This document shows positions 13,225 to 64,000 of a DNA stretch of 64,000 bases, one piece after another (position 1 is the stretch's first letter; every line of letters begins with the position of its first letter). The translations under genes were made by a program, and so were the position numbers. This stretch comes from an uncultured Gammaproteobacteria bacterium (GTDB taxonomy: Bacteria; Patescibacteriota; Microgenomatia; Levybacterales; GWA1-39-11), in the NCBI GenBank assembly GCA_964409875.1, contig CAYPEN010000001.1, positions 292,275 to 356,274 of the forward strand, in the 5' to 3' direction. The notes under the pieces are model-generated. The model was not told the origin of the DNA. It did no database searches and saw only the letters and a list, made by a program, of their open reading frames with translations.

Positions 13225-13254
13225 TTGACAGGTGGTCATAATTGACCGTATTAT
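13225..13254 (+). promoter_or_regulatory. Sigma70-like promoter candidate (TTGACA-18 nt-TATTAT) upstream of the pilX-like/pilMNO genes
   Basis: Consensus hexamers seen directly. An ATG lies at 13265, about 10 nt after the -10 box, so the transcript would be nearly leaderless. Confidence 0.3.
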
Positions 13255-13264
13255 GTATAAGTAT

Positions 13265-15177: not shown

Positions 15178-15209
15178 CAAGTCCATATACACATCTTTGA
15201 ACTGCCCAT

Positions 15210-15746: not shown

Positions 15747-15747
15747 C

Positions 15748-16407
15748 ATGAAAGAACTTGAATTAATCTACAGAAAAAGAAAAAAACAACTTCTTCCTAT
15801 AATCTTTGGTTTTGCGTCCGTTTTTGTTTTTTTTAGAATTATTATCCCGCAATGGTCGGATATACAGGATGCACAGCAACTTATTACAACCAAAGACAGT
15901 GTCGTGAAAGCGAAAGAGACAACAGTAGCGCTGTTGGAGTCTCTCTCACAAGAAAATGTAGATAATGATTATATGCTTGCAACAACTGCTTTGCCGGCTC
16001 AAAAGGATGTCGTCCTTATTTTTTCGGAACTTTCCGATGCTTCTTCTAAGGCAGGAGTAAAGCTTGGAGGTTTTACTATAAAAGTTGGTGGCGTATATTC
16101 AACTTCCAAAACGCAACAAGTATCAGGTGAAAAGTCAATTAACGGAATTCCTTTTATAAACATTCTTGTCACTGTAAGCGGCAAAAACGACGGCCTTCGT
16201 AAATTTGCAGAAATCATGTATAAAAGTATGCCGGTTGTGGAGATAAAGAGCGTTGATATCTCTAAAAGTGATGCAAGGTATAATGTAAATTTTTTCTATA
16301 AGCCAGTTGCGTTGAAAGCACCGAATGCAGACTCAACTGCCCTGACAAATCTTACCCCTCTTCAATCGTCCCAATTGAAGGAATTAAAGGGATGGAAAGG
16401 GGAATAG
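15748..16407 (+). CDS. pilO: PilO-like protein
   Basis: An N-terminal TM helix and matching position; no strong motif. Confidence 0.45.
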   Translation: MKELELIYRKRKKQLLPIIFGFASVFVFFRIIIPQWSDIQDAQQLITTKDSVVKAKETTVALLESLSQENVDNDYMLATTALPAQKDVVLIFSELSDASSKAGVKLGGFTIKVGGVYSTSKTQQVSGEKSINGIPFINILVTVSGKNDGLRKFAEIMYKSMPVVEIKSVDISKSDARYNVNFFYKPVALKAPNADSTALTNLTPLQSSQLKELKGWKGE

Positions 16408-34132: not shown

Positions 34133-34297
34133 ATGAAATTATTAACTTTAAAGCAGGCGGCCCGTATGCTGGGCGTCTCTCTTGAGACTCTACAGTATTT
34201 GGCCAACAGATATGGTCTAAGCCCCGTAGTCAATGACAGGGGTGAATTTTACTACGAAGAAGACAAACTTCGAGCACTTCTTGAGACAGCAGAATCT
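34133..34297 (+). other. N-terminal helix-turn-helix-like segment (MerR/excisionase-type pattern) of the giant protein
   Basis: MKLLTLKQAARMLGVSLETLQYLANRYGLSPVVNDRGEFYYEEDKLRALLE has the LxxxEaAxxLGVSxxTlxxwxxxG pattern of HTH_17/MerR-family N-termini. Confidence 0.4.
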
Positions 34298-37200
34298 ACA
34301 TACCGCAAGTTCACACAAAACAAGGCAACTATAGGTCAAAAAAAGAGCTTTTTTCAAAATCATGAAAACTCAGAAGCCTCAACTGGTTCTCCTGCAGCTC
34401 CATTAAAGGGCGAAACCAAATGGGAACTCTTTGTTAAATTTACCTACCTCCGGCCTGGAAAAAGAGCTATTGTTTTAGGGGTCATCACCTTAGCTCTTAT
34501 ATTCTCTTTGGGATACGCTCAAGTATCTCTTCTCAAGCTAAAAGCTCAAAAAGCCAATAATGCTTTCAATGCACTTGAGGATACGAGCTCAAAAGTTCTC
34601 GGTGCAGCGACGAGTAAGCTGAAATTAACCGGTAACATTCTCTTTAGCCTGCCTTTAGTTTCGAAGGAGAATGTAGCTATCGGAAAAGAACTTCAGGTAA
34701 CGGGGAAGAGTTTTTTCAAGGATGACATTACTGCACCTAATGTCGTGTATGGAATAACAGCAGGAGGAGGAATTACAATTTCCGGTGATGCGCAAAATCC
34801 GGTCATTTCTGCCGTTCAAGGTGGAGTTACATCACTACAGGGTACCACAGGTGACGTAACCCTTAAGGCTGGAACAGATATTTCGATTTCCGGACTTACA
34901 ATAAGCGATGCTTCTACCCTTTCCACGGTCGTTTCACGGGGAGATTGCACGGGATGTATTACCGATGCGGCGGTAGTAAATACTCTTACCATCGACTCGG
35001 GAGGCCAAGTAGCCGCAGGTGCCATTAAGGGAACTCTTACGACGTCGGTTGGAGGAACCGGACTCAGCACGTATGCAACGGGTGATTTGATATACGCTTC
35101 TTCAACAGACACTCTTGATTCACTTCCAATCGGAGCCGCCGGTCAATTTTTGACGGTTTCAAACGGGCTTCCCGCTTGGGCTTTTGTGAGTTCTTTTGCA
35201 GTTGCCAACGTTAAAGAAAACAACGTAATCATCTCTTCTCAGACGAACACTCTTAACTTCGCAAATAGTGATTTCGATCTTACCGAAAGTCCCGCAGGTC
35301 AAGTCAATATTCAACTTGCCCCTACACCGCCTTCGATAACAGGGGTAGTGAGCAATTTCTCCGTTGGTGGAACCGCAATCACATTTTCTACTAGCGGTTC
35401 GATAACTTCTGCCGGTGCAAATGCATTGACGCTCGATACGGGAACTACTGGAACCCTCAATCTTGGAACCAGTAATAATGCTAAGACTGTTAATATAGCA
35501 ACCGGTAATGCGGGCAACACCGTAAATATTGCAACTGACAACACTGTAGCAGACACCATCAATATCGGCTCGGCGCTTGATACCAACAATCTAAATTCCG
35601 GCTTGGTATATGTCCCGAATGGACGTGTAGGAATAAAAGCGTTGCCTAACGATGTTGATGCAGACACCAATCCTTTTGCCCTTGAGGTAGCAGGGAGTAT
35701 CGGTCCGAATGCGGACGGTGTTTATGATTTGGGTTCTCCGTCATTGAGGTACCGCAACTTGTATATTACGGGGGCGACAACCTCAAATGGAGACATTACG
35801 ATAGCCAATAATTCACCGAAAATTTATTTCATTGATACCGACGTGGGCCAAAACCAGTACCTGGTAAACGTGGACACCTCACAGTTCACGCTTAAAAACA
35901 ACACCACGGGGGCTACGGCCCTCTTTGTCGATTCTAATGGGGATGTGTCTTTGGCCGGAGGATCTGCCTCAACGGGGTGTACAATAGCCGATGCAACCGG
36001 AAATCTGGTGTGTGCCGGAAGCATAACGACCTCCAATACTTCGGGTACGGTTGGGTTCTTCTCACGCAATAACGGTACATCCACCATTTCTCCTGCAACT
36101 TCAGGTGATAATATTTCAACTTCGGGTAATATCCTGACGACGGGAACAGGAACAATTACCTCCGCAGGACTCTTGACTGCTTCAAACGGTTTGACTGTTA
36201 CAGCAGGCGGAATTAACGTAAATAGCACCGGCATTACAAATGCAGGGGATATCCTCGGAGCGGGGGCTATTTCTGCAAGCGCCGCGTTGACATTTACGGG
36301 AACAGGTACAAACATTACAACGGTTTCAAATGCTGATTTGACTATTGGTGCCAATGGAAGCGGACAGCTTGTCATTTCGAGCAATGTTCTTCTTGGGACT
36401 CTTCCGGGAGCAGGAGTGTCGGCAACTACTTTGTGCCGAGATAACACAACTCACCAAATTACCCAGTGTCCAGCGAATGCGTCAAATGTTTCGTTGCAGG
36501 ACGCATATAATGCAGGCAATACAATCAATACCTCTGACAACCGCGACATTGCTTTTACCCTGACCGATACCGCAACCGACTCAAAGTTCATGCTTACCAA
36601 CCAGGGCACCGCAACAGCTTTCACCATAAATGACACAAATGCTGCGGTTAACACGCTTCTTTCGATTCAGTCAAATGGTACTCCTACTCTAACAATTGAT
36701 GAAAATGGCGTAGTTTCAACTTCCGGCAATATTGCAACAACTGGAACTGGAACAATTACCTCTGCCGGACTTCTTACAGCCTCAAACGGGTTAACAGTTT
36801 CAGCTGGTGGAATATCGGCAAACGGTGGCATTAACAACAACAATGGGGGAATTACCAATGCCGGTGACCTTTTAGGAGCTGGGGCAATTTCTGCGAGCGC
36901 CGCATTAACTTTTACAGGAACAGGTCCCAACATTACAACCGTTTCTGATGCGGACTTAACAATTGCGCCAAACGGCTCAGGGCAAATCATCCTCTCCAAC
37001 AATGTACTTCTCGGAACGCTTCCCGGAGCTGGTGTTTCTGCTACCACTCTTTGCCGAGACAATACCTCCCATCTTCTGACACAGTGCCCAGCAAATGCGG
37101 CAAATGTTTCACTGCAAGATGCATATAACGCAGGGAACACTATAAATACATCAGACAACCGCGATATCGCTTTTACCTTGACCGATACCGCAACCGACTC

Positions 37201-40200
37201 AAAGTTCACGCTTACCAACCAGGGCACCGCTACCGCTTTCACAATCAATGACACGAATGGTGCGGTTAACACCCTTTTGTCCGTACAATCCGGCGGCACG
37301 CCAACATTAACTATTAATGAGAACGGAGTCCTTTCAACCAGCGGCAGCATCTCAACTACCGGTACGGGAAGCATTACAAGTGCGACTACTTTGACCGCAC
37401 AAGGTACCACCAACCAACTCGTTCTCGGAAATGGGAACACTACAACCATCAATTCCCTTGCACCTGCAAGCGCAAGGATTGCAACAATCCCGGGTTTGAC
37501 CATTAATGACACTTTCCTCTTTGCAACCGAGTCAGCGCTTGTTTCCAACAAGACTTTCAGGGACAACTCGACCAATTTCCAGGACGAGCTTGATAACACG
37601 AAGCAATTCTCATTTGATGCAAGTCTTATCTCAACGGGCGTTACAAGAAAGATACAAATTCCTGATTACGACGGGACTGTTTGTTTGACGACCGGTAACT
37701 GTGCAGGGTCAGGCGGAGTTGTCGGAGGAAACGGTACCCTTAATCACTTAGTGAAATTCACTATTACCGGTTCGACAATCGGAGACGCGAATCTCACAGA
37801 CAATGGAACAGTTGTGAATGTTCTTTCGGGACTGAATGTCGGTGACCAGACAGGTTCTGATACGTTGTCGGTTCTAAGACTTTTGGACGCAACCGGCGGA
37901 AGCCAAATCCAGAACTCAAATCTTCTCACGCTTCAAGGTGCATATTGGACGGGGGCGGTTTCGCAAAGTGTCGGGTTCTCGTTGCAAAATGTGGTAACCG
38001 CTACTACACCAACTTACAAATTGTCATTCCAAAATGATGGTGGCTCGGAAGTCGCAAGTATTGCCAACAACGGAAATGTCGCGTTAACAGGAACCGTAAC
38101 CGGCGCAACCGGCCTTACTTCCTCAGGAACAATCACATTCTCCGGACTTACCAATAACGGTCCGGTGTATACAACGGCAGGAGGAGTGTTGAACTCCGAG
38201 ACTCTTCTCTCTCCTGTAAGAGGCGGAACGGGCGTTGACTCCTCTTCTGCAGCAAACGGGGCAATTCTTATCGGAAATGGAACAGGGTTTACTCTCGCAA
38301 CTATCACCGGTACTGCAAATCAAGTAAATGTTGCAAATGCGGCAGGAAGCATTACTCTTTCGACTCCACAGGATATTGCAACCTCCTCCACTCCGACGTT
38401 TGTCTCACTTACGTTGTCAAATGCGACTAACCAGTTGGTATTGGGCACTGGCAACACTACAACCATTACCTCTCCGGCTCCCGGTGCTTCAAGAGTTGCT
38501 ACCATTCCAACGCTTGCCGGCAATGACACATTCGTATTTGAGAGCCAGACTCAAACACTTACAAATAAAACCATCGGCTCAACAGGGCTTGTCTTCTCAG
38601 GGGCTGCAACGGACATCACTACCGTTTCAAACGAAGACCTGACATTATCAGCCGACGGGCTTGGTGAGATAGTTCTTTCAAATGTGACCAAAATTCCAAA
38701 CCTTTCAGGAACGGTTGGTGCTACTGTTGTCTGCCGGAATGCATCAAATGAGTTCTCTATTTGTTCATCAAATGCTCTCAACGTTACGCTACAGCAAGCA
38801 TATAATGCGGGCAACACGATCTTGGCATCCGACTCGGAGGGCAACATCGACTTTACATTAGCCGACCTTTCCTCCAGGGCACTGACAGTTACCAATGCAG
38901 GAAGTGCATCATCGGCTCTTGTTATAAACGACACGAATGCATCGGTTCAGAATGCTCTCGAAGTACAGTCTAGCGGCTCAGCAACTCTTACTATAAATGA
39001 GAATGGAAATATCTCAACTGTTGGAAATATTTCAACAACCGGTACGGGAACGATTACGAGCGCCGGTCTTCTTACTGCGTCAAACGGTTTGACAGTGACC
39101 GCAGGAGCAGTCAATATTGCGGGTTCGTCAGGTGTAATCAATCTAACCGGTTTGACAGCCCTGACAATAGATGCAGGAGTCAACAACCTCCTCTTTACCG
39201 GTGGCAATTTCAGTACCACAGCAACAGGCATCAACGGAACGGCAATTGGCGCAACTACCCCGTCAACCGGTAACTTTACCAACTTAACAACGACTTCCAA
39301 TGCTTCGTTCTCGGGCAATCTAACTCTTGCAGGGGCTCCAAGAAGCATCCAGACGACCGAAAACAACACGTTGACCATTGGTGGTGATACGACGGGAAAT
39401 ATTGTTCTTGCACCTCTCAATGGAACAGGAATCCTTACCGTTAATGGAAATACTGTTAATGTCGGAAGCTTTGATGTTAATGGTGTATCAACTTTCAATA
39501 ATAATATTACCCAGTCAGGAGCTTTCACATTCTCAACCGGAACAGGTGCAGTTTCACTGAATGGTAATACATCCGTTACGGGCACTAACACATTCACTGT
39601 TGCGGGTGGTGCTACATCTTTGGGGTCGACACTGGACGTGACCGGGATAACAACTTTGAAGAATGATGTATTTGTAACATCCGACCGGTTCTTCAATGCA
39701 TCAGGGTCGGCTATATTTACTCCGTCGGGTACGAATTCTGTCGTATTCAATACAAATTCAAATGCTAAAGTTCAATTCAACGGCCTTCAGACCGTTAACG
39801 GTAATTCCCTTTGTGTGGACGGCTCAAATTACCTGGTAGTCTGTAACGGAGCGCCATTCGGTCTTCAGGCGGCATATAATACCGGAAACACCATTAACAC
39901 GTCTGATGCCCGAGACATCGCATTCACTCTTTCAGACACCGCTACCGACTCAAAGTTCATTTTGACCAACGAAGGGACAGCAACAGCTTTCACTATCAAT
40001 GACACCAATGCTGCAACCAACACCCTTTTAGACATCCAATCGGGAGGTGTTTCGAAGTTAACTATCAATGAGAATGGAGTCCTTACAACTTCTGGCAACA
40101 TCTCAACGACCGGAACCGGAACTATAGCTTCGGCAGGACTTTTGACCGCTTCCAACGGATTAACATTAACAACCGGTGCATTAAATCTGACCGCTACATC

Positions 40201-58200: not shown

Positions 58201-61200
58201 TGCATTCAACCTGTCTGATACGGCAACTGACAGCAATTTCACGGTTACAACTGCTAACGGCTCAACGGGCACGTCCATATTTGCGCTGCAAGATGGGGTT
58301 TCAGCAACTGCTCCAGACCAGTTGGTGCTTATCGACAACCAGGACACCGACCTTACGCTTCCAGCGGGTATTAAAGTCACCTCCTCAGGGGGGGGAGCTA
58401 TAACAACAGCGCTTGACCTTTCTGCAAGTGCCATTGTGAATGCGTTATCCCTGGGGGCAAATGACGTTACGGCTACCAATTTCTCATTCACTGGATCAAA
58501 TGGTAACTTCTCAACAAATGGCACTATAACGGCAACCGGGAATGTCAATGCTAATTCGGGAACACTTGCTACAACCAACGCCACTGGAAACCTCTTCAAC
58601 ACCAATGCAACAACCCTTAATATTGGTGGCGCCGCAACAACCTACACATTGGGTGCAACAACGGCAACAGGCAACATAAGGGGTACGAGCATAAACTTCC
58701 CTAATGCGACTGCTCTTGATGCGCTTTCAGCATTGGCAAGAGTTGACTCACTGCAAGTCGGCGGAGGCTATGGTTCGACTGGACTCACCATTTCAAATAC
58801 CGGCAACATTTCTGCCAATGGAACGTTGACCATTGACAGCACATCAACCCTAACAGGGGATGTTACAGCTGCTGCAAATGTTGCTGTCAATGGAGGAACC
58901 CTATCAACCACCAACGCAACTGGAAACCTCTTCAACACCAATGCAACAACTCTTAATATCGGTGGTGCTGCGACAACAGTTTCATTAGGAGCCGGAACCG
59001 GAACAACTACTGTTAACAATGACCTTGCAATAACCGGAACGACGACTTCAACCGGACTTGTTACTGCAAATGGAGGGCTTACCGTTGCAACGGGCCAAAC
59101 CTTGACGGCAAACGGCGCGTCAACCTTCTCTCCTGATTCAACCAATGATGTAACATTTAATACTGACGCAGACTCAACGGTTAAATTCGTTGGCCTTCAA
59201 ACTACCTCCGGCACAGCTCTTTGTCTTGACGGCTCAAGCAATCTTGTTTACTGCACTGGTGCTCCATTTGGTTTGCAGGCGGCATACAACACCGGAAACA
59301 CGATTAACACATCAGACGCCCGTGATATTGCGTTCACTCTTTCAAATACGACAACCGACAGCAACTTCACGGTTACCACCGCTACAGGCTCAACCGGATA
59401 CTCAGCATTTACCCGGGCAAATGGTGCCGGGACAGCTGACCCAACGCAGTTGGTACTCATCCAGAACAACGACACCGACCGCGCTCTTCCGATTGGTCTT
59501 AAAATTGCAGGAGTATCAGGAGGGGTTGTTGCCACCGCAATTGATTTGTCAGATAGCAACATTACGACTGCCCTTTCTCTTGGAGCAGCCGATGTCACCG
59601 CTACAAATTACTCGATAACAGGCGCAACGGGTAACATTACGACAACTGGTGACATTGCAGTAAACGGCGGCGACCTTACGACTACAAATGCTTCTGCTAC
59701 ATTATTTAATACAAATGCCACAACCTTGAATATCGGAGGTGCGGCAACGACTTTGACCCTTGGAGCATCAACAGGAACCGCAACCATTGCAAACGGCACC
59801 GTTACGCTTTCTAATGCCACCGCTTTTGACGCGCTTACCGCACTTGCCAGGGTTGACTCACTTCAGGTTGGTGGCGGATATGGCTCAACGGGCGTGACCA
59901 TCTCAAATGCAGGAGCAATTCAGGCAAACGGAAATCTCACTATTGATGGTACATCACAATTAACCGGCAACGTTACAACCTCTGGAGACCTTGCAGTTAA
60001 CGGTGCCGGAAGTGCTGACATCACGACAACAACCACTACCGCTACTCTCTTCAATGCCAACGCAACAACTCTTAATATCGGCGGCGCTGCTACGAATGTT
60101 ACACTTGGTGCAGGTGGAGGTTTAACAACTCTTAACAATAACCTAACTGTTAATTTAACCGACAACAATACAGATGCGCTGGATATTCAAGAAGGGTCAA
60201 ATAATTACATCAACATTAATACAACGGATAGCTCTGAGAACATTTCGTTCGGAAATGTGACGACCAACCCTACCTACAATTTCCTCGGAACAGGTCTTAC
60301 AACATTAGGTGGTAATTTGGCTGTTAATGGAGGTTCTGTCACAACGACACAAGCAACGGCAAATCTCTTTAACACCAACGCCACGACTTTGAATGTCGGC
60401 GGCGCTGCAACTGTTTTAACTCTAGGTGCTTCGACCGGTACTGCGACAATAAACAATGCAAATGTTTCACTACCCAATGCAAAGCTTGGTGTCGGAACCG
60501 CTGCTCCAATTTCTGCATTATATGTTACCCGCCCACTTTCACTTGCCGTAACAGGAAAGTCTTTGGCTATTTTAGATCAACTTGAAAATCAGGATATATT
60601 CACTGCCTCTGCATCAGGTGTAACCCGCTTTACGATTGCCAATAATGGAGACGTTACGGCAAATGGGAACATAACCGCTTCAGGAAATGTTGCGGTTAAT
60701 GGAGGCACCCTCTCAACAACCCAGACAACGGCAAATCTCTTTAACACCAACGCCACGACTTTGAATATAGGCGGCGCTGCAACAGCACTCAATTTGGGCG
60801 CATCAACAGGAACCGCAACCGTAAATAATCTCACCGTTAACTTTGCAAATGCAACAGCATTCGACGCGTTGTCTGCCTTGGCACGTGTCTCTTCACTTCA
60901 GGTGGGCGGAGGATACGGCTCCACGGGTGTAACAGTATCCTCCGCCGGGGACATTCAAGCAAACGGTGCATTAACAGTTGATGGAGTCTCTACTTTGACG
61001 GGGGATGTAACCGCAGGCGGAGATTTGGCTGTCAATGGTGCAACATCTGCCGACATTACGACAACGACAACTACAGCTACATTATTTAATACCAATGCAA
61101 CGACTCTTAATATCGGTGGTGCTGCAACAACCCTTTCTCTCGGAGCAGGTTCTGGCACAACAACAGTTAACAACAATGTATCGGTTTCAGGAACCACAAC

Positions 61201-64000
61201 CTCAACGGGTCTTATCACTGCAAACGGTGGGTTGACCGTTGCCTCAGGCCAGACTTTGACCGCAAATGGCTCTGTTGCACTAGACCCCAACGGCGCAAAT
61301 GACATTGCTATCACAACTGATTTTTCTGCAGGTTCTTACCTTAATATCACCGGCCTTGACACCCAAACCGGTAACACACTTTGTATTGATGGGTCAAATA
61401 ATGTCGTGAAATGTTCTGCCGCCTCAATCACCTTACAAACTGCATACAACGGTGGCAACACAATCAATACTTCGGATAATAGAGATATATCATTCAACCT
61501 AACCGACACTACAACCGATAGTAACTTTAACGTTACAACAGCAACCAATTCAACAGGTTACAGCGCGTTCACCAGGGCTGACGGCGCGGGAACTGCGGAC
61601 CCAACACAGTTAGTTCTTATCAAGAATCTTGACACCAACCGTGCACTCCCAATTGGCCTTAAGATTGCTGGGGTCAGCGGAGGAAATGTCACAACTGCAT
61701 TGGATTTGTCGGATAGCAATATCACAACAGCAATTTCACTGGGAGCCAACAATGTGTCGGGTACCAATTTCTCAATAACGGGTAGCACAGGCAACATTAC
61801 AACTTCAGGAGATATTGCAGTTAATGGTGGGGACATAACTACAACAAACGCGACAGCTACCCTATTCAACACGAATGCTACCGACCTTTCTATTGGTGGC
61901 GCAGCAACAACTCTTACCCTTGGCGCATCAACAGGAACCGCAACGGTAAATAATCTCACCGTTAACTTTGCAAATGCAACAGCATTCGACGCGTTGTCTG
62001 CCTTGGCACGTGTCTCTTCACTTCAGGTGGGCGGAGGATACAGCTCCACGGGTGTAACCGTATCCTCCGCCGGGGACATTCAAGCCAACGGCAACCTCAC
62101 CATTGATGGCACGTCGCAATTAACCGGCAACGTAACAACATCGGGCACTATCAATGCCAATGGAGGAACCATCGCAACAACCCAAACAACAGGTAACCTT
62201 TTCAACACGAACGCTACCACGCTTAATATCGGTGGCGCAGCAACCACGGTAAGTCTTGGCGCCTCAACCGGGACGAGTACTATCAATAACAATTTGTTGG
62301 TTTCGGGAACTTCAACGTTCAATGGTGATGTGCTCATTTCAAATGACCGTTTCTTCAACGCATCAGGAAGCGCGATATTTACACCTGAAGGCACCAATGG
62401 CGTAACAGTCAACACAGACTCCGATTCGTTCTTAACCCTTACTGGTCTTACAACTCCCGGTGTTGCCGGAACAGCTCTCTGTATTGATGCTTCAAACAAT
62501 GTCACCAAGTGTTCTGCCAACACCATAACTCTTCAGTCCGCATACAATGGCGGCAATACAATTACCACTTCAAACGGACGTGATATAGCACTCACCTTAA
62601 CAAATGCCAATCTTTCAGCGACCACTTCTGCTGGCTCTAACGGATTTACTCAGTTTGCCCTTGCCAATGGTACTAACACCAATCCTGCAAACCAGCTCGT
62701 TTTAGTTGAGAACTTAGACACAAACGAAGCGCTTACAACAGGTATTAAGGTGCAATCCGCAGCAGGTGGCATCACAAATGGCATCGACCTCTCTGATCCG
62801 GAGATTGTAAACGCTCTTGCGTTAGGTGCGAATGACGTTGTTGCAACAAACTTCTCTATTGCAGGTGCAACAGGCAACATTACGACGGCAGGCGACATAG
62901 CGCTTAATGGTGGAGATCTTACGACAACATCAACTACTGCTACACTTTTCAACACAAATGTAACGGACCTTTCCATTGGGAGCGCAGCCACAACACTAAC
63001 GCTTGGCGCATCAACAGGTACAGCGACAATAGCAAATGCTACTGTTGATTTCTCAAATGCAACGGCATTTAACGCGCTTTCTGCTTTGGCAAAAGTTGAC
63101 TCACTTCAGGTTGGTGGCGGATATGGCTCAACGGGGGCAACCATTTCAAACACCGGCAATATTCAGGCAAATGGAACACTTACCGTTGATGGAACCTCTA
63201 CCCTTACGGGAGATGTGACCACCAGTGGAGATCTAGCAGTAAATGGTGCATCATCGGCTGACATTACAACGACAACCGCAACTGCTACTCTCTTTAACAC
63301 AAACGCTACAACCCTTAACATAGGCGGTGCTGCCACTACTGTTTCGCTTGGCGCTGGAACTGGAACAACTACGGTAAATAACAACCTATCAATTACAGGG
63401 ACGGAAACGAGTACCGGTCTTGCGACATTCAATGGGGGTGCAACGGTTGCAACCGCTCAGACGTTTACGGCAGGTGGTCAGTCGACATTCTCGCCTGACA
63501 ATACGAATGGTGTTACTATCAACACTGACGCTGATTCTTTCCTGACTATTGCTGGGCTTCAAACCGCCACCGCAAGCACGCTTTGTATTGACGGTTCAAA
63601 CCATGTAGTTAAATGTTCAGCCGCATCAACGACCTTGCAGTCTGCTTATAACGGGGGCAATACAATTTTGACGTCAGATGCGAGGGATATTGCCTTTACA
63701 CTTTCCGATACCACAACAGACAGTAACTTTGCTGTAACAACTGCAACAGGCTCGACCGGATACTCGGCATTTACTCGAGCAGATGGGGGTGGCGCTGCCG
63801 ACCCAACCCAACTTGTTCTCATTCAAAACCTTGATACCAATAGAGCTCTTCCAATAGGTCTTAAGATTGCTGGCGTTTCAGGTGGAAATGTAACCACAGC
63901 ATTGGATTTGTCAGACAGCAATATTACAACTGCAATTGCACTAGGCGCAAACAACATATCAGCAACTCATTTCACACTTACCGGCAGCAACGGCAATATT
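34133..64000 (+). CDS. Giant repetitive membrane-anchored surface protein, 3'-partial. At least 9,956 codons lie in the window and the ORF continues past the right edge.
   Basis: Translating from the ATG at 34133 (frame 2) gives no stop through 64000. No plus-strand ORF in this frame appears in the track, consistent with an ORF that never terminates inside the window. Coding periodicity and the repeat structure fit this frame only. The ectodomain composition is dominated by T, G, N, A, S and L. Confidence 0.85.
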   Translation, partial: MKLLTLKQAARMLGVSLETLQYLANRYGLSPVVNDRGEFYYEEDKLRALLETAESTYRKFTQNKATIGQKKSFFQNHENSEASTGSPAAPLKGETKWELFVKFTYLRPGKRAIVLGVITLALIFSLGYAQVSLLKLKAQKANNAFNALEDTSSKVLGAATSKLKLTGNILFSLPLVSKENVAIGKELQVTGKSFFKDDITAPNVVYGITAGGGITISGDAQNPVISAVQGGVTSLQGTTGDVTLKAGTDISISGLTISDASTLSTVVSRGDCTGCITDAAVVNTLTIDSGGQVAAGAIKGTLTTSVGGTGLSTYATGDLIYASSTDTLDSLPIGAAGQFLTVSNGLPAWAFVSSFAVANVKENNVIISSQTNTLNFANSDFDLTESPAGQVNIQLAPTPPSITGVVSNFSVGGTAITFSTSGSITSAGANALTLDTGTTGTLNLGTSNNAKTVNIATGNAGNTVNIATDNTVADTINIGSALDTNNLNSGLVYVPNGRVGIKALPNDVDADTNPFALEVAGSIGPNADGVYDLGSPSLRYRNLYITGATTSNGDITIANNSPKIYFIDTDVGQNQYLVNVDTSQFTLKNNTTGATALFVDSNGDVSLAGGSASTGCTIADATGNLVCAGSITTSNTSGTVGFFSRNNGTSTISPATSGDNISTSGNILTTGTGTITSAGLLTASNGLTVTAGGINVNSTGITNAGDILGAGAISASAALTFTGTGTNITTVSNADLTIGANGSGQLVISSNVLLGTLPGAGVSATTLCRDNTTHQITQCPANASNVSLQDAYNAGNTINTSDNRDIAFTLTDTATDSKFMLTNQGTATAFTINDTNAAVNTLLSIQSNGTPTLTIDENGVVSTSGNIATTGTGTITSAGLLTASNGLTVSAGGISANGGINNNNGGITNAGDLLGAGAISASAALTFTGTGPNITTVSDADLTIAPNGSGQIILSNNVLLGTLPGAGVSATTLCRDNTSHLLTQCPANAANVSLQDAYNAGNTINTSDNRDIAFTLTDTATDSKFTLTNQGTATAFTINDTNGAVNTLLSVQSGGTPTLTINENGVLSTSGSISTTGTGSITSATTLTAQGTTNQLVLGNGNTTTINSLAPASARIATIPGLTINDTFLFATESALVSNKTFRDNSTNFQDELDNTKQFSFDASLISTGVTRKIQIPDYDGTVCLTTGNCAGSGGVVGGNGTLNHLVKFTITGSTIGDANLTDNGTVVNVLSGLNVGDQTGSDTLSVLRLLDATGGSQIQNSNLLTLQGAYWTGAVSQSVGFSLQNVVTATTPTYKLSFQNDGGSEVASIANNGNVALTGTVTGATGLTSSGTITFSGLTNNGPVYTTAGGVLNSETLLSPVRGGTGVDSSSAANGAILIGNGTGFTLATITGTANQVNVANAAGSITLSTPQDIATSSTPTFVSLTLSNATNQLVLGTGNTTTITSPAPGASRVATIPTLAGNDTFVFESQTQTLTNKTIGSTGLVFSGAATDITTVSNEDLTLSADGLGEIVLSNVTKIPNLSGTVGATVVCRNASNEFSICSSNALNVTLQQAYNAGNTILASDSEGNIDFTLADLSSRALTVTNAGSASSALVINDTNASVQNALEVQSSGSATLTINENGNISTVGNISTTGTGTITSAGLLTASNGLTVTAGAVNIAGSSGVINLTGLTALTIDAGVNNLLFTGGNFSTTATGINGTAIGATTPSTGNFTNLTTTSNASFSGNLTLAGAPRSIQTTENNTLTIGGDTTGNIVLAPLNGTGILTVNGNTVNVGSFDVNGVSTFNNNITQSGAFTFSTGTGAVSLNGNTSVTGTNTFTVAGGATSLGSTLDVTGITTLKNDVFVTSDRFFNASGSAIFTPSGTNSVVFNTNSNAKVQFNGLQTVNGNSLCVDGSNYLVVCNGAPFGLQAAYNTGNTINTSDARDIAFTLSDTATDSKFILTNEGTATAFTINDTNAATNTLLDIQSGGVSKLTINENGVLTTSGNISTTGTGTIASAGLLTASNGLTLTTGALNLTATSGSLSLSGLSASSLNFGANDLTITANNFNTTATGINGTAIGATTPSTGNFTTLTTTGNASFSGNLTLAGAPRSIQTTEFNTLTIGGNTTGNITLSPQNGLGVFTINGSTVISGANTLTVGTGATTLGGTLDVAGIATFTNNISQTGATTFSTGTGNVSLNGNTSVTGTNTFTVGTGLTTLGGNFLAQGTASISGGLTLFGTPSIQSTADQTLTIGGDTTGNIILTPLNGIGIVTVNGNVVDTGTFTVNGVSTFNNNISQTGASTFSTGTGNVSLNGATSVTGTNTFTVGTGATTLGGTLDVTGVATFNNDVSQTGAHTFSTGTGAISLNGATTVAANTAFLVSAGSGSVDFKNTSGITIGEDIAGGTNNTPGTIKLWSQGDNAYSTTITTATQTQNITFTLPPDDGIANYVLVTDGNGVLSWQSTSGIGAGTITAVGNVTSGTAFTGSDSSSNKGNILIFEGSTTVDDANDITVTAVNPVSSITYTLPDIGTNGTFAFLEGTQTFTGAKTFSDLTISDTNIPFTGGDTTFDITGAATRTLSLVNSTVGQVANLELTDGDLLTAGTSRLTNAGALQNITGYTQTSGNFSIAGAGTFSTGTGSISLNGNTSVTGTNAFTVGTGLTTLGGDLLTNGTASVSGALTLFTTPTIQATDLQALTLGSATTGQLNLFNNTYVLGTSNFTVGTGATTLGGTLDVAGVATFTNNISQTGVTTFSTGTGNVSLNGNTSVTGTNTFTVAGGATSLGSTLDVTGITTLKNDVFITSDRFFNASGSAVFTPSSDNDVVFNTDNNSTVIFNGLQTAAGSKICIDGSNNLVLCASQGGTLQQAYNEGNTINTSDARDIAFTLSDTATDSKFILTNEGTATAFTINDTNAATNTLLDIQSGGVSKLTINENGVLTTSGNISTTGTGTITSAGLLTASNGFTVTTGAVNITGTSGALNLTGLTAATIDAGVNNILITSANFNTTATGINGTAIGATTPSTGNFTTLTTTGNASVSGNLTLAGAPRSIQTTEFNTLTIGGNTTGNIVLSPQNGLGLFTINGNTVVSGTNTLTVGTGATTLGGTLDVAGVSTFTNNITQTGASTFSTGTGAVSLNGNTSVTGTNTFTVGTGATTLGGTLDVAGVATFTNNISQTGATTFSTGTGVVSLNGNTSVTGANTFTVGTGLTTLGGNLIANGSASISGALTLFGIPTIQTTDFQNLTLGGGQTGGIVLNSGTVVNGGNTFTVGTGATTLGGTLNVAGVATFTNNISQTGATTFSTGTGVVSLNGNTSVTGTNTFMVAGGATSLGSTLDVTGITTLKNDVFVTSDRFFNASGSAIFTPSGTNSVVFNTNSNAKVQFNGLQTVNGNSLCVDGSNYLVVCNGAPFGLQAAYNTGNTINTSDARDIAFTLSDTATDSKFILTNEGTATAFTINDTNAAVNTLLSIQSNGTPTLTIDESGALSTSGSITTTGTGTITSAGLLTASNGLTLTTGALSLTATSGSLNLTGLSSSTLDFGANDLTITANNFNTTATGINGTAIGATTPSTGNFTSLTTTGNASFSGNLTLAGAPRSIQTTEFNTLTLGGDTTGNITLSPQNGLGVFTINGSTVISGTNTFTSGTGAVTLNGATSITGTNTLTVGTGATTLGGTLDVAGVATFTNNISQTGATTFSTGTGNVSLNGNTSVTGTNTFTVGTGLTTLGGDLIANGTASISGGLTLFSIPIIGTTDLQALTLGTGTTGQINLATNTYVLGTSTFSVGTGATTLGGTLDVAGVATFTNNISQTGATTFSTGTGNVSLNGATTVTGTNAFSVNGGPTTLGSTLDVTGITTLKNDVFVTSDRFFNASGSAIFTPSTNNNVVFNTSATERVQFNGLQTVNGNSLCVDGSNYLVVCNGAPFGLQAAYNTGNTINTSDARDIAFTLSDTVTDSKFILTNEGTATAFTINDTNAATNTLFDIQSGGVSKLTINENGALSTSGNILTTGTGTITSAGLLTASNGLTVTTGAVNITGTSGALNLSGLGASLIDAGTNNLLVTSGAFTVDATGINTTAIGVTTPKQATFTTLSSLSDTSIATGAGAILNAGNTTGAVTINGSNVTINANGTGNGIAFGLPVDSPNAFSVSESTNGYINVDTSTGAENVSFGNTNTNPTFQFQGTGATTFGGDVAVNGGVLSTTAVSASLFNTNATTLNIGGAATTVTLGANTGTTTVNNALAVTDSVTVTPNNATGIALNPFGVAAGNTAEAQFYELAANGSEYTGFKAPDSLAATVVYTLPSAAAGAADYVLTYQNGGLLEWKSANLLAGDITAVGDVLTGDAFTGTDAGNNLYFQGATVDSFSIDLQGADATQNETIVLPANSGTVTLLQPRFAQTATGTQPLLFLNEAGASTPNLIQLQVASNDVFTVDNSGNVAIAGATVSSTGSTVNLFNTVTSTLNIGGAATTVSLGAGTGTTTVNNALTSTGLITANGGLTVANGQTLTVDGIANIGDGGDAVALNGTTITLTANGAGNDITANLVDNNTDALDIQQGTNNYLNIDTTDGSENITFGNATTNPTFTFLGTGLTTHGGSIAVNGGDITTTAGTANIFNANATTVNIAGAATALSLGASTGTTSINNNAVVTGDLAVNGASSADITSTTATATVFNSGVTNLSIGNAATTLSIGASSGTTTVNNALTITGATTANGTFTANNQVTLQPSGTNGVTIVTDGNSFLTIPGLTTPVASNSTLCIDASDNVVKCPPSASTLQSAYNGGNTIFTSDGRDVAFTLTDTTTDSKFTIHTATGSTAGTEFVREDGAGTADPTQLVLIDNADIDRILPIGIKITSSGTSGVTTALDVSDPTIVTAIALGANDVTGTNFSVTGSNGNITSAGDIAVNGGDVTTTNATATLFNSNATSLSIGGAATTLTLGANNAGTATIANATVTLSNATAFNALAALAKVDSLEVGGAYGSTGVTISNAGDVQANGALTIDGTSTLTGDITSSGDLALNGSDITTTSNGTATLFNTNATTLNIGGAATTISLGAGSGTTTVNNSLSVVNDLTTTGNVTFTPTAASNESITFNTSSTEKLFVTGLPTATGTLVCIDGVTSQITKCAADAISLQSAYNGGNTIATSNARDIAFTLSDTATDSNFTVTTADGSTSYSAFTRANGTGTSDPTQLILVNNLDTNRPVPTGIKISSTGGGGITTGLDVSDATITTGIALGASSISGTNFSVAGGTGNITSAGDIAVNGADITTTSTGTATVFNTNATTLNIGGAATAYTLGATTATGNIRGTTINFPNATAFDALSALARFDSIQAGGGYGSTGVTISNTGNIQANGTLTVDSTSTLTGAVTASNGITVSGVASADLISSKTTANLFNTTATTLNIGGAATTISLGAALGTTTANGSLSVVDDLTTTGNVTFTPTASSNESITFNTSSTEKFFVTGLPTATGTLVCVNDSDGQITKCASDAISLQSAYVGGNTITTSNARDIAFTLSDTATDSNFTVTTADGSTSYSAFTRANGTGTADPAQLVLIDNADTDRILPIGLKISSSGGGGITTALDLSDASIVTAIALGANDITGTNFSVNGTNGNITSAGDIAVNGSDITTTSNAAASVFNTNALTLNIGGAATTYTLGATTATGNIRGTTINFPNATTINAGSAALTIDNAIIGGGYGSTGVTISNAGDIQGNGNLTIDGTSTLTGNITSSGDLALNGGDLTTTAATATLFNTNATNLSIGGAATTVSLGASGGTTTINGSLTVNENLTSTGNVTFTPPASSGNSITLNTSSTENLFITGLPTATGTLVCVDNSTGQITKCAPDAISLQSAYNGGNTIQTSDNRNIAFTLTDTATDSKFTVGVAAGSTGDIEFTRNAGSGTADPTQLVLIKNNQTRALPIGLKIAGVASGAITTALDLSDSNITTAIALGANSISGTHFTLTGSNGNIATDGNIAVNGGNITTTTSSVSIFDTNATTLTLGNAATSLTIGATTGTATIRNQTISFPNATALDALSALTRVDSLQVGGAYGSTGVTISNIGDIQANGALTIDGTSTLTGNVTVGGDVAVNGGDLTTTQLSATLFNTNATTLNIGGAATTVSLGAGTGTTTVNNALTVSGATTANAGFTANGASTFTPGVGNSVTINTDSTNTSYLTVTGLGTAAGTVVCIDGSNNIVKCNAATTSLQAAYNSGNTILTSNARDIAFTLTNTASDSNFVVTTATDSTGGTQFIRADGAGTNDPNQLVLIDNADADRILPTALKITSSGGSGVTTALDVSDASIVTAIALGANDITGTNFSVNGTNGNITSAGDIAVNGSDITTTSTGTATVFNSNALTLNIGGAATSYTIGATTATGNIRGTTINLPNATTFAASLAAASFDSLTIGGGYGSTGVTVSNAGDIQANGNLTIDGTSTLTGNITSSGDLALNGGDLTTTASTATLFNANATTIRLGEGATAISVGGPNSTVSLHNDLRVNGVATFDGGATVSANRSFTANGPVTVNQNNGSDIVFNLDYTAGSYLTLAGLETPGVAGAALCLDGSNQVTKCGGATFSLQSAYNGGNTINTSDNRDIAFTLSDTSTDSNFTVTTAADSTGYSAFTRANGGSGTNPSQLVLIQNLDTSNALPIGLKIAGVSGGNVTTALDLSDANITTAIALGVNNVSGTHLTITGSTGDITTDGDIAVNGGDITTTSGTATLFNTGATNLSVGGAATTLTLGATTGTASIRNTTVSLPNATAFDALSALARVDSLQVGGGYGSTGVTISNTGNIQANGTLTIDGTSTLTGNVTAAANVAVNGGSLTTTAATGNLFNANATTVNIAGGASAVNIGGTGTTTINNNLAVTGTSTFTGTATANGDFVANANSTFSPTGTDTVTINTTGTALLKITGLQTAAGDLLCIDSGTNQVEKCAATSISLQGAYNGGNTINTSNNRDIAFTLSDTATDSNFTVTTATGSTGYSAFTRQDGVGAADPTQLVLIQNLDTNRALPIGLKIAGVSGGNVTTALDLSDTFITTAIALGTNNVSGTNFSINGSSGNITTSGDVAVNGGNLTTTQATANLFNANATTLNIGGDGTNITIGAAIGTTTINNATVSFANATAFNALSALAKVDSLQVGGGYGSTGVTISNTGNIQANGTLTVDDTSTLTGDTTVGGTLGVTGATTLSSTLAVTGDTTLTGDLAVNGGDLTTTAATFNLLNANATTVNFAGAATSLTLGATTGTASIRNLTVSLPNATAFDALSALARVDSLQVGGGYGSTGVTISNTGNIQANGTLTVDGISTLTGNVTAASDVAVNGGDLTTTNASATLFNTNATTLNIGGAATTVTLGAGGGLTTLNNNLTVNLTDNNADALDIQEGSNNYININTTDSSENISFGNVTTNPTYSFLGNGAATFDGNINANSGTIATSQTTGNLFNTTATTLNIGGAATALTLGASTGTATINNATVVAPNSKFGIGTATPISALFVTRPLTLGATGKALTILNQIENQDIFTASSSGTTRFTIANNGDVTANGNITTTGNVAVNGGSLTTSQATANLFNTNATTLNIGGAATTVSLGAGTGTTTVNNNLAITGTTTATGLATFNGGATIATGQTLTANGASTFSPDSTNDVTFNTDADSTVKFNGLQTVNGNSLCLDGSNNLVICNGAPFGLQAAYNTGNTINTSDNRDISFTLSDTATDSNFTVTTATGSTGYSAFTRQDGVGAADPTQLVLIQNNDTDRALPIGLKIAGVSGGNVTTALDLSDTNITTAIALGTNNVSGTNFSITGSTGAITTSGNVAVNGGTLSTTNATGNLFNTGATTLNIGGAATTYTLGATTATGNIRGTTINFPNATSISAGSAALTIDSLSVGGGYGSTGVSISNTGDIQANGNLTVDGTSTLTGDVTAGGDLAVNGATSADITTTTTTATLFNTNATTLNIGGAATTVSLGAGSGTTTVNNALTATGLITANGGATIATGQTLTAQGQSTFSPNSTNGVTINTDADSFLTITGLSTATANTLCIDGSNHVVKCSASSITLQSAYNGGNTIDTSDARDIAFNLSDTATDSNFTVTTANGSTGTSIFALQDGVSATAPDQLVLIDNQDTDLTLPAGIKVTSSGGGAITTALDLSASAIVNALSLGANDVTATNFSFTGSNGNFSTNGTITATGNVNANSGTLATTNATGNLFNTNATTLNIGGAATTYTLGATTATGNIRGTSINFPNATALDALSALARVDSLQVGGGYGSTGLTISNTGNISANGTLTIDSTSTLTGDVTAAANVAVNGGTLSTTNATGNLFNTNATTLNIGGAATTVSLGAGTGTTTVNNDLAITGTTTSTGLVTANGGLTVATGQTLTANGASTFSPDSTNDVTFNTDADSTVKFVGLQTTSGTALCLDGSSNLVYCTGAPFGLQAAYNTGNTINTSDARDIAFTLSNTTTDSNFTVTTATGSTGYSAFTRANGAGTADPTQLVLIQNNDTDRALPIGLKIAGVSGGVVATAIDLSDSNITTALSLGAADVTATNYSITGATGNITTTGDIAVNGGDLTTTNASATLFNTNATTLNIGGAATTLTLGASTGTATIANGTVTLSNATAFDALTALARVDSLQVGGGYGSTGVTISNAGAIQANGNLTIDGTSQLTGNVTTSGDLAVNGAGSADITTTTTTATLFNANATTLNIGGAATNVTLGAGGGLTTLNNNLTVNLTDNNTDALDIQEGSNNYININTTDSSENISFGNVTTNPTYNFLGTGLTTLGGNLAVNGGSVTTTQATANLFNTNATTLNVGGAATVLTLGASTGTATINNANVSLPNAKLGVGTAAPISALYVTRPLSLAVTGKSLAILDQLENQDIFTASASGVTRFTIANNGDVTANGNITASGNVAVNGGTLSTTQTTANLFNTNATTLNIGGAATALNLGASTGTATVNNLTVNFANATAFDALSALARVSSLQVGGGYGSTGVTVSSAGDIQANGALTVDGVSTLTGDVTAGGDLAVNGATSADITTTTTTATLFNTNATTLNIGGAATTLSLGAGSGTTTVNNNVSVSGTTTSTGLITANGGLTVASGQTLTANGSVALDPNGANDIAITTDFSAGSYLNITGLDTQTGNTLCIDGSNNVVKCSAASITLQTAYNGGNTINTSDNRDISFNLTDTTTDSNFNVTTATNSTGYSAFTRADGAGTADPTQLVLIKNLDTNRALPIGLKIAGVSGGNVTTALDLSDSNITTAISLGANNVSGTNFSITGSTGNITTSGDIAVNGGDITTTNATATLFNTNATDLSIGGAATTLTLGASTGTATVNNLTVNFANATAFDALSALARVSSLQVGGGYSSTGVTVSSAGDIQANGNLTIDGTSQLTGNVTTSGTINANGGTIATTQTTGNLFNTNATTLNIGGAATTVSLGASTGTSTINNNLLVSGTSTFNGDVLISNDRFFNASGSAIFTPEGTNGVTVNTDSDSFLTLTGLTTPGVAGTALCIDASNNVTKCSANTITLQSAYNGGNTITTSNGRDIALTLTNANLSATTSAGSNGFTQFALANGTNTNPANQLVLVENLDTNEALTTGIKVQSAAGGITNGIDLSDPEIVNALALGANDVVATNFSIAGATGNITTAGDIALNGGDLTTTSTTATLFNTNVTDLSIGSAATTLTLGASTGTATIANATVDFSNATAFNALSALAKVDSLQVGGGYGSTGATISNTGNIQANGTLTVDGTSTLTGDVTTSGDLAVNGASSADITTTTATATLFNTNATTLNIGGAATTVSLGAGTGTTTVNNNLSITGTETSTGLATFNGGATVATAQTFTAGGQSTFSPDNTNGVTINTDADSFLTIAGLQTATASTLCIDGSNHVVKCSAASTTLQSAYNGGNTILTSDARDIAFTLSDTTTDSNFAVTTATGSTGYSAFTRADGGGAADPTQLVLIQNLDTNRALPIGLKIAGVSGGNVTTALDLSDSNITTAIALGANNISATHFTLTGSNGNI
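34466..34534 (+). other. Single predicted transmembrane anchor of the giant protein (aa ~112 to 134)
   Basis: AIVLGVITLALIFSLGYAQVSLL is preceded by RPGKR (positive-inside), so the large C-terminal part is predicted to be outside the cell. Confidence 0.6.
39648..40014 (+). repeat. 367-nt intragenic exact repeat, copy 1. Copy 2 is at 44091..44457, 4,443 nt downstream.
   Basis: Compared base by base across all six sequence lines; no mismatch seen. It covers the LCVDGSNYLVVC...TINTSDARDIAFTLSDTATDSKFILTNEGTATAFTINDTNA module. Confidence 0.85.
50784..50916 (+). repeat. 133-nt intragenic exact repeat. Copy 2 is at 52917..53049.
   Basis: Identical on inspection (SDASIVTAIALGANDITGTNFSVNGTNGNITSAGDIAVNGSDIT). 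Confidence 0.8.
54902..55002 (+). repeat. 101-nt intragenic exact repeat. Copy 2 is at 57110..57210, and the flanks are also highly similar.
   Basis: Identical on inspection. The same antisense pseudo-ORF peptide SLCQILQLTVTSLSLPQQAQQVTAHLPGKMALVLQ is reported twice in the ORF track (54891..55127 and 56997..57230). Confidence 0.8.
60801..60965 (+). repeat. About 165-nt near-identical intragenic repeat (about 4 mismatches). Copy 2 is at 61926..62090.
   Basis: By inspection: ...LTVNFANATAFDALSALARVSSLQVGGGY[GS]STGVTVSSAGDIQANG. Confidence 0.75.

Follow-up and report, generated by a model that had tools for sequence, protein, structure and literature searches.

The window analysed here, 64,000 nucleotides (nt) of contig CAYPEN010000001.1, carries on its plus strand a giant gene that is still open at the window's end and encodes a long, repetitive protein. 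Along this protein a pair of cysteines recurs in 20 modules, each time shortly before the same conserved core, LQxAYxxGNTI. The pair is kept in orthologs and in distant relatives, and nearly all modules of the wider family have either two cysteines or none. It is proposed, with a probability of roughly 0.55, that at the start of every super-module of about 360 amino acids (aa), a β-hairpin is stapled by an intrachain disulfide, as a structural clasp in a giant surface fibre from a Levybacteria-like bacterium within the Candidate Phyla Radiation (CPR, or Patescibacteria).

Twenty modules along the giant protein

There are 46 cysteines in the 9,956 aa of the giant protein encoded within the window, a frequency of 0.46%, compared with 0.64% in the other open reading frames (ORFs) of the window. 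All 46 have a partner 12 or fewer residues away, where random placement gives a mean of 4.7 and a maximum of 19 in 20,000 trials. Twenty of the pairs match the module, with a C-x9-C loop in 14 and a C-x10-C loop in six. In every one of these the pair is followed, 6 to 9 residues on, by LQxAYNxGNTI..RDIAFTLSDTATDS[KN]F, and the motif LQxAY[NV]xGNTI occurs exactly 20 times in the giant protein, each time preceded by a cysteine pair. A sequence-only reading of the window had counted about 20 such modules, and the codons of the first cysteine (C1) lie no more than 16 nt from the starts that it listed. It had allowed loops of C-x9-11-C, of which the x11 form never occurs, and had called cysteine otherwise almost absent, which agrees with the low, wholly paired count but overlooks three further pairs outside the modules. 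The lead-in VxFNTDxDS..GLQTxxG, thought to precede each pair, is present in 17 modules; the first three have ..LLGTLPGAGVSATTLC or ..IPNLSGTVGATVVC instead. The interval between the first two modules is 618 nt, close to the 600 nt given earlier, and the later intervals are 1.06 to 2.81 kb, so that the maximum is 2,808 nt rather than 4.4 kb.

Alignment of the 20 window modules with MAFFT gives 13 invariant columns: L35, C46, C56, L63, Q64, A66, Y67, G70, N71, T72, I73, S76 and L85. There is no conserved His, Lys or Glu column.

All of the modules are on the plus strand, and the coordinates given here begin at the C1 codon. They are based on the listing of cysteine pairs and the alignment and, for modules 8 to 17, also on comparison with an ortholog, locus L001. 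Module 1 (36434..36589) has the loop CRDNTTHQITQC (x10) and then the core LQDAYNAGNTINTSDNRDIAFTLTDTATDSKF, and module 2 (37052..37207) has CRDNTSHLLTQC (x10) ahead of its core. The core of module 3 (38732..38884; CRNASNEFSIC, x9) is divergent, LQQAYNAGNTILASDSEGNIDFTLADLSSRAL. The loop CVDGSNYLVVC (x9) leads into the core in modules 4 (39812..39958), 6 (44255..44401) and 7 (45791..45937), as CIDGSNNLVLC (x9) does in module 5 (42620..42766). Module 8 (48323..48469; CIDASDNVVKC, x9, then core) begins the first regular super-module of about 360 aa, and its cysteines are kept in L001. Three x10 modules with their cores come next: 9 (49385..49534; CIDGVTSQITKC), 10 (50456..50605; CVNDSDGQITKC, with the core LQSAYVGGNTI) and 11 (51518..51667; CVDNSTGQITKC). 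Loop and core likewise make up modules 12 (52592..52738; CIDGSNNIVKC, x9), 13 (53699..53845; CLDGSNQVTKC, x9), 14 (54782..54931; CIDSGTNQVEKC, x10), 15 (56993..57139; CLDGSNNLVIC, x9), 16 (58094..58240; CIDGSNHVVKC, x9), 17 (59222..59368; CLDGSSNLVYC, x9) and 18 (61382..61528; CIDGSNNVVKC, x9), module 13 being the copy used in both structure predictions. Module 19 (62480..62626; CIDASNNVTKC, x9) has a core with a divergent tail, ..RDIALTLTNANLSATT. The last, module 20 (63584..63730; CIDGSNHVVKC, x9), has its core within the window, and its super-module is cut by the window end.

A hidden Markov model (HMM) built from the copies confirms the super-modules of about 360 aa that had been proposed and gives them a length of about 364 aa. 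A variable lead-in and the hairpin occupy positions 1-60, the conserved core follows at 61-110, and from 110 to 364 the sequence consists of G/T/N-rich repeats. Gaps of 720-737 aa are super-modules in which the second half (HMM positions 180-363) is duplicated. The shorter tandem units of about 54 aa are supported locally, by a 162-nt tandem repeat at 43343-43715 and by a 21+33-aa motif spacing from 39.5 to 45.5 kb. Among the paralogous units of the window protein, conservation is lowest at positions 1-60 (0.52-0.66) and highest at positions 61-110 (0.82-0.87). The position of the cysteine pair, between a variable lead-in and the most conserved core, fits the inter-module joint that had been suggested for it.

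Two cysteines or none

Cysteines were counted in the 40 residues upstream of every LQxxY-type core. Of 220 modules in homologous proteins, 204 have two cysteines and 12 have none. The only module with a single cysteine is a fragment that has IFVPD where others have LCxD, and the three with three cysteines are at ragged fragment ends. In genome loci the corresponding figures are 193 modules with two and two with none out of 196, the remaining one, with a single cysteine, adjoining a broken ORF. Each of the 20 window modules has exactly two. The spacing between the cysteines in the family ranges from 2 to 20 residues, with modes of 9, 10, 5, 8 and 16, and the position just upstream of LQxAY is kept although the spacing varies. 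Hairpins found at this same place in distant lineages include CYENGAWSDC, C..GE.LKW.G.GW.C, GQCL.....W..C and TLPD.SGT.CL..GNC, and C-x5-C directly ahead of LQxAY is a common variant in distant homologs. The modules that have no cysteine carry a Trp or aromatic hairpin instead, such as YIWNGSSWI or LTNDGSGNLTW, and the LQxAY core is fully conserved in all 12 of those in the homologous proteins.

Judged from these sequences, the conserved thing is a closed hairpin directly ahead of the core, usually closed by two cysteines. Cysteines that stay or disappear in twos, at variable spacing, are what a disulfide would lead one to expect, and this pattern disfavours a single reactive thiol or one fixed metal site.

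Cysteine-free hairpin motifs of a similar kind (FTLPPDDGIANYVLVTDGNGVLSWQ; GDLIYASSTDTLDSLPIGAAGQFLTVSNGLPAW) are also seen in the giant protein itself, at 40.3-45.5 kb of the window (residues ~2470-2560) and in the N-terminal region at ~380-420. They resemble the Trp hairpins that substitute for the cysteine hairpin in some distant homologs.

The metagenome-assembled genome (MAG) CAZMSF01 is collinear with the window, and synteny is kept. Its locus L022 takes in the ATP synthase genes along with the opening 5.5 kb of the giant gene, and its locus L001 matches window positions 46073-61214 over 15.2 kb, with 77% nucleotide identity and 91% aa identity. L001 keeps 20 of the 20 cysteines of the matching stretch over 5,044 aa, and L022 keeps all 12 of the N-terminal cysteines. 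By the Nei-Gojobori method, over 5,044 codons, the proportion of synonymous differences (pS) between L001 and the window is 0.69, the synonymous divergence (dS) is about 1.9, which is saturated, and the non-synonymous divergence (dN) is 0.067, for a dN/dS of 0.035. This ratio indicates that the giant protein is a real protein under strong purifying selection. In nine related loci, too, the giant open frame has a cysteine count of exactly twice its module count.

The constraint on window positions 46073-61214 is unusually strong for a low-complexity repetitive protein. Each repeat copy there keeps its own sequence between the species, with no sign of concerted evolution in the comparison with L001.

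A search of metagenomic protein sets with a profile of the module had been proposed with the original reading. A word-indexed search yielded just 21 short fragments, but when 1.84 billion proteins were searched exhaustively with a profile, 320 cluster representatives scored E<1e-3. Many of the proteins are 2,000-4,900 aa long (up to 4,861 aa) and have up to six copies of the module. Representatives of 50%-identity clusters supplied 179 instances, of which 86% have C46 and 93% have C56, and L63, Q64, Y67 and G70 are each found in 98-99% (Q64 in 175 of the 179). The core motif of the family is [ST]-L-Q-x-A-Y-x-x-G-N-[TS]-I .. R-[DN]-I-x-F-x-L, which is present in 20 of the 20 window modules, and the loop turn has the family-wide consensus C-[LR]-D-G-S-N-x-hydrophobic-x-x-C. 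The sequence-only reading had selected a recurrent, conserved cysteine pair in each super-repeat along a fibre-like ectodomain, to be given up if the modules aligned inconsistently or the cysteines were not conserved in orthologs. The modules align consistently, the cysteines are kept in orthologs and distant relatives alike, and the feature is supported.

A scan of one genome per species identified 34 loci, all of which are in small MAGs. By record title, these belong to Levybacteria/Levyibacteriota, Veblen-, Uhr-, Kerfeld- and Saccharibacteria. The Cys-hairpin/LQxAY module is an uncharacterised, Patescibacteria-restricted family, present in multiple copies in long CPR proteins. The gene-carrying MAGs of loci L001-L006, L008, L011-L017, L019, L022 and L023 are titled 'uncultured Gammaproteobacteria bacterium' and have genomes of 1.3-1.6 Mb; these titles, including that of the window's closest relative, look like mislabels.

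Over 8,000 aa of the giant protein, no Pfam or NCBIfam family matches the ectodomain at E<=0.1, an N-terminal helix-turn-helix (HTH) being the only Pfam match, and no Pfam family was found in two long homologs. Sequence searches of the PDB with the super-module profile, with the C-terminal 962 aa of the ortholog and with the first 1,000 aa of the window protein returned chance-level matches only. PHROG 4527, a 'short tail fiber protein', and PHROG 6002 match at E=1.7e-16 and 3.2e-13, although only to the low-complexity T/G/N-rich repeats in the second half of the super-module and not to the cysteine module. Scans of 2.9 million viral contigs (IMG/VR), with the alignment of the 20 modules and with the family consensus, found no homolog of the module. 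The sole viral match is a 28-residue LQSAYDAGNTI motif with no cysteine pair. It is in a 388-aa ORF at 7569-8735 of locus L035 (IMG/VR UViG_3300012956_000026), where TLQSAYDAGNTI stands at an apparent domain junction. A phage tail fibre identity was considered for the giant protein and rejected: the PHROG matches are partial, the neighbouring genes are cellular, synteny is kept, and the viral contigs have no homolog of the module. Literature searches found no description of the LQxAY motif or of giant Levybacteria proteins.

The predicted hairpin and its closure

Two AlphaFold2 monomer predictions were made, both on module 13. The first covers the whole super-module with 34 aligned sequences and has a predicted local distance difference test (pLDDT) score of 80.2 and a predicted template modelling (pTM) score of 0.58. 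The second, made with 46 diverse sequences, takes in 208 residues with the loop at their centre, and has a pLDDT of 84.4 and a pTM of 0.60. In both models the cysteine-bearing segments form the only β-hairpin assigned by DSSP (E46-48/E54-56 with C47/C57, and E72-75/E81-84 with C74/C84), and directly after it there are one or two short helices over ..LQSAY. The two cysteines are thus placed by the models on opposite strands of one hairpin. A small separate domain had been expected from the sequence; what is predicted instead is one β-hairpin at the N-terminal edge of a larger conserved segment.

In the favoured mechanism, the two cysteines would be on the two strands of a short β-hairpin with a D-G-S-N-type turn, and an intrachain disulfide would form between them after export, by way of a presumed MdbA/VKOR-type oxidation pathway, of which no trace turned up in the window. 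A CPR protein-family survey reports that MdbA-like thiol-disulfide oxidoreductases, frequently beside VKOR, are enriched (PMC6744442), and paired cysteines have been reported in CPR pilins solved by electron cryo-microscopy (bioRxiv 10.64898/2026.03.03.709456). The probable extracytoplasmic position of the ectodomain and the even cysteine numbers of the window's pilin-like ORFs also favour disulfide formation. It is because of the both-or-none pattern, the variable spacing and the CPR-enriched MdbA/VKOR oxidoreductases that a disulfide is favoured. Right after the stapled hairpin would come the short LQxAY helix and the best-conserved part of the unit, and because of this position the hairpin is suggested to act as a covalent clasp between one fibre segment and the next. 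Such a clasp would probably hold fold and register in place locally, in a chain that is very long and full of repeats, and would shield the junction from unfolding or proteolysis.

Several observations weigh against a staple of this kind. The hairpin stretch has the lowest confidence in both models, with a pLDDT of 59-79. Read most simply, the DSSP limits have Cys1 facing residue +8 and Cys2 two residues further on, so the cysteines may be diagonal and not directly opposite, the register of the strands being ambiguous. Outside the hairpin and helix, no secondary structure is assigned by DSSP although the pLDDT is over 90 (up to 96). The chain may therefore fold only as an oligomer, and the cysteines could then pair between chains. 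The 12 of 220 family modules that have a Trp or aromatic hairpin and no cysteine indicate that the staple is dispensable. There is no oxidoreductase gene by Pfam among the 29 window ORFs of at least 150 aa, nor was anything informative found downstream of the ortholog's stop when one was sought near the giant gene. Anoxic water is the habitat of many CPR bacteria. The modules, their conservation, the two-or-none pattern and the predicted hairpin are observed; the disulfide, its placement within one chain, its stabilising role and the adhesin function of the protein are inferred.

Pairing between chains would produce an interchain cystine collar: in a homo-oligomeric fibre, for example a trimer like a phage tail fibre, Cys1 would bond to the neighbour's Cys2 once per super-module. 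The both-or-none behaviour of the cysteines fits this no less well. Both models show an extended chain that, despite a high pLDDT, has hardly any secondary structure of its own, as in monomer predictions of intertwined fibres, and the DSSP register, the PHROG short-tail-fibre and virion-protein matches to the second half of the super-module and a coiled coil near the C-terminus of the ortholog can all be read in the same way. No fold match to either model was found in the PDB or BFVD (best E 0.44, template modelling (TM) score 0.27 or less). The weak matches, which are not significant, are mostly to trimeric fibres (VgrG1, tail fibres and a YadA-like head), and amount to no more than a hint of oligomeric folding. 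However, every one of these fold matches has an E above 0.4, the PHROG matches are outside the cysteine module, a cysteine spacing of anything from 2 to 20 residues is easier to explain by loop closure within one chain, and both cysteines are on one predicted hairpin. A collar between chains is considered unlikely, though it is the main rival of the staple. Similarly doubtful is a broader proposal, in which a new kind of bacterial fibre, an oligomeric, phage-tail-fibre-like one of about 20,000 aa, would have its register and mechanical strength set by some 35 periodic cystine locks, either interchain collars or redox-sensitive clamps. If this were true, a 1.3-1.6 Mb genome would spend about 4% of its DNA on one host tether, and the Cys-hairpin/LQxAY unit would be a new structural family with no Pfam or PDB relative.

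It has also been considered that the loops bind. The fibre would then present an adhesive epitope some 35 times, exposed for multivalent attachment to a host surface and comparable to the disulfide-bonded D-region in type IV pilins. Copies within the protein differ most in their lead-in and loop (0.52-0.66, against 0.82-0.87 for the core). The hairpin region of each copy is kept between the species (0.90-0.93 identical in the orthologs), so the copies could have individual specificities, and the hairpin is the only predicted excursion with its own secondary structure. Yet the loop is short (9-10 aa) and not hypervariable, its D-G-S-N β-turn is the consensus across the family, and distant relatives substitute unrelated Cys or Trp hairpins of other lengths. 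A recognisable binding-type domain, Laminin_G_3, is found instead at the distal end of the ortholog. The turn consensus and the 90-93% identity between orthologs argue for a structural role, which is favoured over ligand binding; no support was found for the latter, which the sequence-only reading had also raised. The hairpin fits a structural element at the junction better than a diversifying binding loop, and a binding role is rather improbable, although unit-specific lead-ins may leave room for position-specific roles.

It is very improbable that the thiols stay unoxidised, either as metal ligands or in a Cys thioester with the invariant Gln of LQxAY. In the Cys-Gln thioester adhesin domains of Gram-positive bacteria, the Gln motif is TQxA[IV]W, which [ST]LQxAY superficially resembles. 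Gln64 is nearly invariant in the family, as are both cysteines, and one CxxC pair of the giant protein is near the membrane. A thioester, however, needs one cysteine, and single-cysteine modules make up just 1 of 220 and 1 of 196, both in damaged sequences. The core is intact in the 12 cysteine-free modules, so the Gln is independent of a cysteine partner; no thioester or other domain was matched in Pfam; no one metal-site geometry would accommodate a spacing of 2 to 20 residues; and His is almost absent, there being 17 His (and 81 Glu) in the 10,031 aa of the giant frame. An identity as a Cys-Gln thioester adhesin was rejected, given the lack of a Pfam match, cysteines that come in twos or not at all, and a core that persists without them.

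That the cysteine pair has no function of its own and was carried along by recent internal duplication, which the near identity of modules 4, 6 and 7 over long stretches does show to have occurred within the gene, can be dismissed on ortholog and family conservation, the cysteines being kept in an ortholog with saturated synonymous sites (dS ~1.9) and in 86-93% of the 179 instances from 50%-identity cluster representatives, in a family whose modules have two or none.

The whole protein, its setting and known systems

The giant gene is in frame 2 of the plus strand, where no stop interrupts the 10,031 codons between nt 33908 and the window's end. The likely start is the ATG at 34133, so that the ORF is at 34133..64000, its 9,956-aa product running off the 3' end. 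With its dN/dS of 0.035 it is taken to encode a membrane-anchored fibre protein that carries the modules. The N-terminus (34133..34291, plus strand) is an HTH like those of MerR_1 (Pfam E=1.5e-5, above cutoff) and HTH_17, and is conserved in L020, L022, L023, L024 and L027. A linker and a basic patch separate it from a single hydrophobic transmembrane segment, AIVLGVITLALIFSLGYAQVSLL (34466..34534, plus strand), which is preceded by RPGKR; this was read from the sequence, and homologs have the same layout. The segment is probably a signal-anchor, with the HTH on the cytoplasmic side and the ~9,800 residues downstream extracytoplasmic, given the positive-inside rule and the combination of an HTH with a transmembrane anchor. 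The ectodomain is rich in T, G, A, N and S.

The layout of HTH, transmembrane segment and giant ectodomain recurs in L020, L022, L023, L024 and L027, the last with two copies of the HTH. The surface fibre would carry, in this HTH, a domain of a DNA-binding type. Some 20 minus-strand ORFs (150-395 aa) at window positions 35824-58605, inside the giant gene, are frame shadows of the long plus-strand ORF and not genes.

The three extra cysteine pairs are all in the membrane-proximal 1,300 aa, on the plus strand, and are all kept in the ortholog L022. At the membrane-proximal base is CTGC (34946..34957), which is CASC or CAAC in L020 and L024. The second is a C-x10-C pair, CTIADATGNLVC (35978..36013), with no LQxAY after it and a similar CTITNSTGALVC in L008. 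The third is the C-x5-C pair CLTTGNC (37682..37702), which has a degenerate LQGAYW 77 aa downstream.

The neighbouring genes are cellular. They include gyrB, a type IV pilus cluster, RecG, a TyrRS/TrpRS-type synthetase, PBP1a and GH130, and F1 ATP synthase subunits are immediately upstream of the giant gene. The pilus cluster (4196-16407) encodes a PilC-like protein, two PilB/PilT-type ATPases, a prepilin peptidase and PilM, together with five pilin-like ORFs that carry N-methylation motifs and have 6, 4, 4, 6 and 4 cysteines, all even numbers. A type IV pilin identity was rejected for the giant protein itself, which has no N_methyl match in Pfam; the motif is in the five neighbouring ORFs. 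Between GH130 and the ATP synthase genes, the ORF at 26419-27255 matches Pfam's XM1 gp53 minor capsid protein below the cutoff (E=1.8e-5; 25.1 bits where 27 are required).

The continuation of the gene can be followed in MAG CAZMSF01, where contig 27 (L001) abuts contig 17 (CAZMSF010000017; L004 and L002). One open frame of 24.3 kb takes up contig 17, adding 15 modules and 32 cysteines, and the final 55 nt of this contig recur exactly as the opening 55 nt of contig CAZMSF010000031 (L008). These two contigs are taken to adjoin because assemblers leave exact overlaps of this kind, here 55 nt, between neighbouring contigs. Three more modules are present in L008, followed by a different region in which a Laminin_G_3 domain of the ConA-like lectin type (E=1.5e-20) precedes a pair of related DYAEYF/DLAEDYP segments, a coiled coil and the stop. 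This C-terminal region (L008 3601-10086) also has four more cysteine pairs, and no PHROG or PDB match was found for it. If the contigs have been joined correctly, the gene is probably about 61.7 kb long and encodes about 20,500 aa with about 35 modules, or about 4% of a 1.3-1.6 Mb genome, and the gene in the window would continue for about 34 kb past the window end. Anchored in the membrane at its base, with a shaft of great length and a distal part of lectin type, such a protein would fit an adhesin or tether.

A large part of bacterial diversity belongs to the CPR/Patescibacteria, which apparently live attached to other microbes, and few of the molecules that tie them to their hosts have been described. 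The conserved repeat unit of one candidate tether is defined here, along with a simple structural rule, that the two cysteines directly ahead of LQxAYxxGNTI stay or go together. In practice the motif can serve to recognise pieces of these giant genes, and to join them, where metagenome assemblies are broken up, and the predicted disulfide would offer a biochemical handle on the folding of a chain of about 20,000 aa outside a cell with no outer membrane.

Giant surface proteins have been described in other CPR bacteria. Vampirococcus lugosii has fibrous-surface proteins of up to 4,163 aa (PMC8080830) and Patescibacterium danicum has FhaB-domain proteins of up to 6,025 aa (PMC11809585). As here, these are very long, repetitive, membrane-associated proteins of ultra-small bacteria with reduced genomes, thought to serve host attachment and with type IV pilus genes adjoining. 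They have been described through PKD, FN3, integrin, DUF11, FhaB and DUF2341 domains, whereas the present protein has no Pfam domain in its ectodomain, and its repeat is the undescribed Cys-hairpin/LQxAY super-module. It is also far longer, with more than 9,956 aa in the window and about 20,500 aa by orthology. The giant genes of Omnitrophota encode proteins of 40,000-85,000 aa with scattered enzymatic domains (bioRxiv 10.1101/2023.11.21.568195; 10.64898/2026.06.04.730025). They too are tens of kb in length, in nano-sized and probably host-dependent bacteria, with repeats that fragment assemblies and few recognisable domains. However, as compared by description, they belong to another phylum and have no reported Cys-hairpin/LQxAY module.

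As in the module, the D-region of type IV pilins is a short loop with a cysteine at either end, within a filament protein that is exported, and the same oxidative folding route would serve the giant protein and the even-cysteine pilin-like ORFs of the window. The giant protein differs in having neither the N-terminal methylation motif nor a pilin fold, and in having the loop at least 20 times per chain, ahead of a conserved module, rather than at the end of a globular domain. Shared with phage tail fibres (PHROG 4527, PHROG 6002) are the T/G/N/S-rich, repetitive sequence, the chain that is predicted to be extended and, in the ortholog, a coiled coil and a lectin-type domain near the distal end. 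In this case, though, the gene is chromosomal, is beside the ATP synthase operon, and begins with an HTH and a membrane anchor.

One cross-link per repeat is known from giant adhesins; it is the Cys-hairpin/LQxAY module that is absent from Pfam, NCBIfam and the PDB. In Gram-positive adhesins and pili, the cross-links are intramolecular isopeptide, Thr-Gln ester and Cys-Gln thioester bonds, one in each repeat. An Ig-like adhesin repeat with an ester or isopeptide bond was rejected for the window protein, there being no conserved His, Lys or Glu and no Ig-like fold in the models. The link inferred here is a disulfide, with no similarity in sequence or fold to the Gram-positive domains and without the catalytic His/Glu environment of ester and isopeptide bonds, and it would close a hairpin of 9-10 residues where the Gram-positive links join the first and last strands of an Ig-like domain. 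The logic is nevertheless the same, with one covalent intramolecular link per repeat in a long stalk on a monoderm envelope, and so is the presumed purpose, which is resistance to mechanical stress and to proteolysis.

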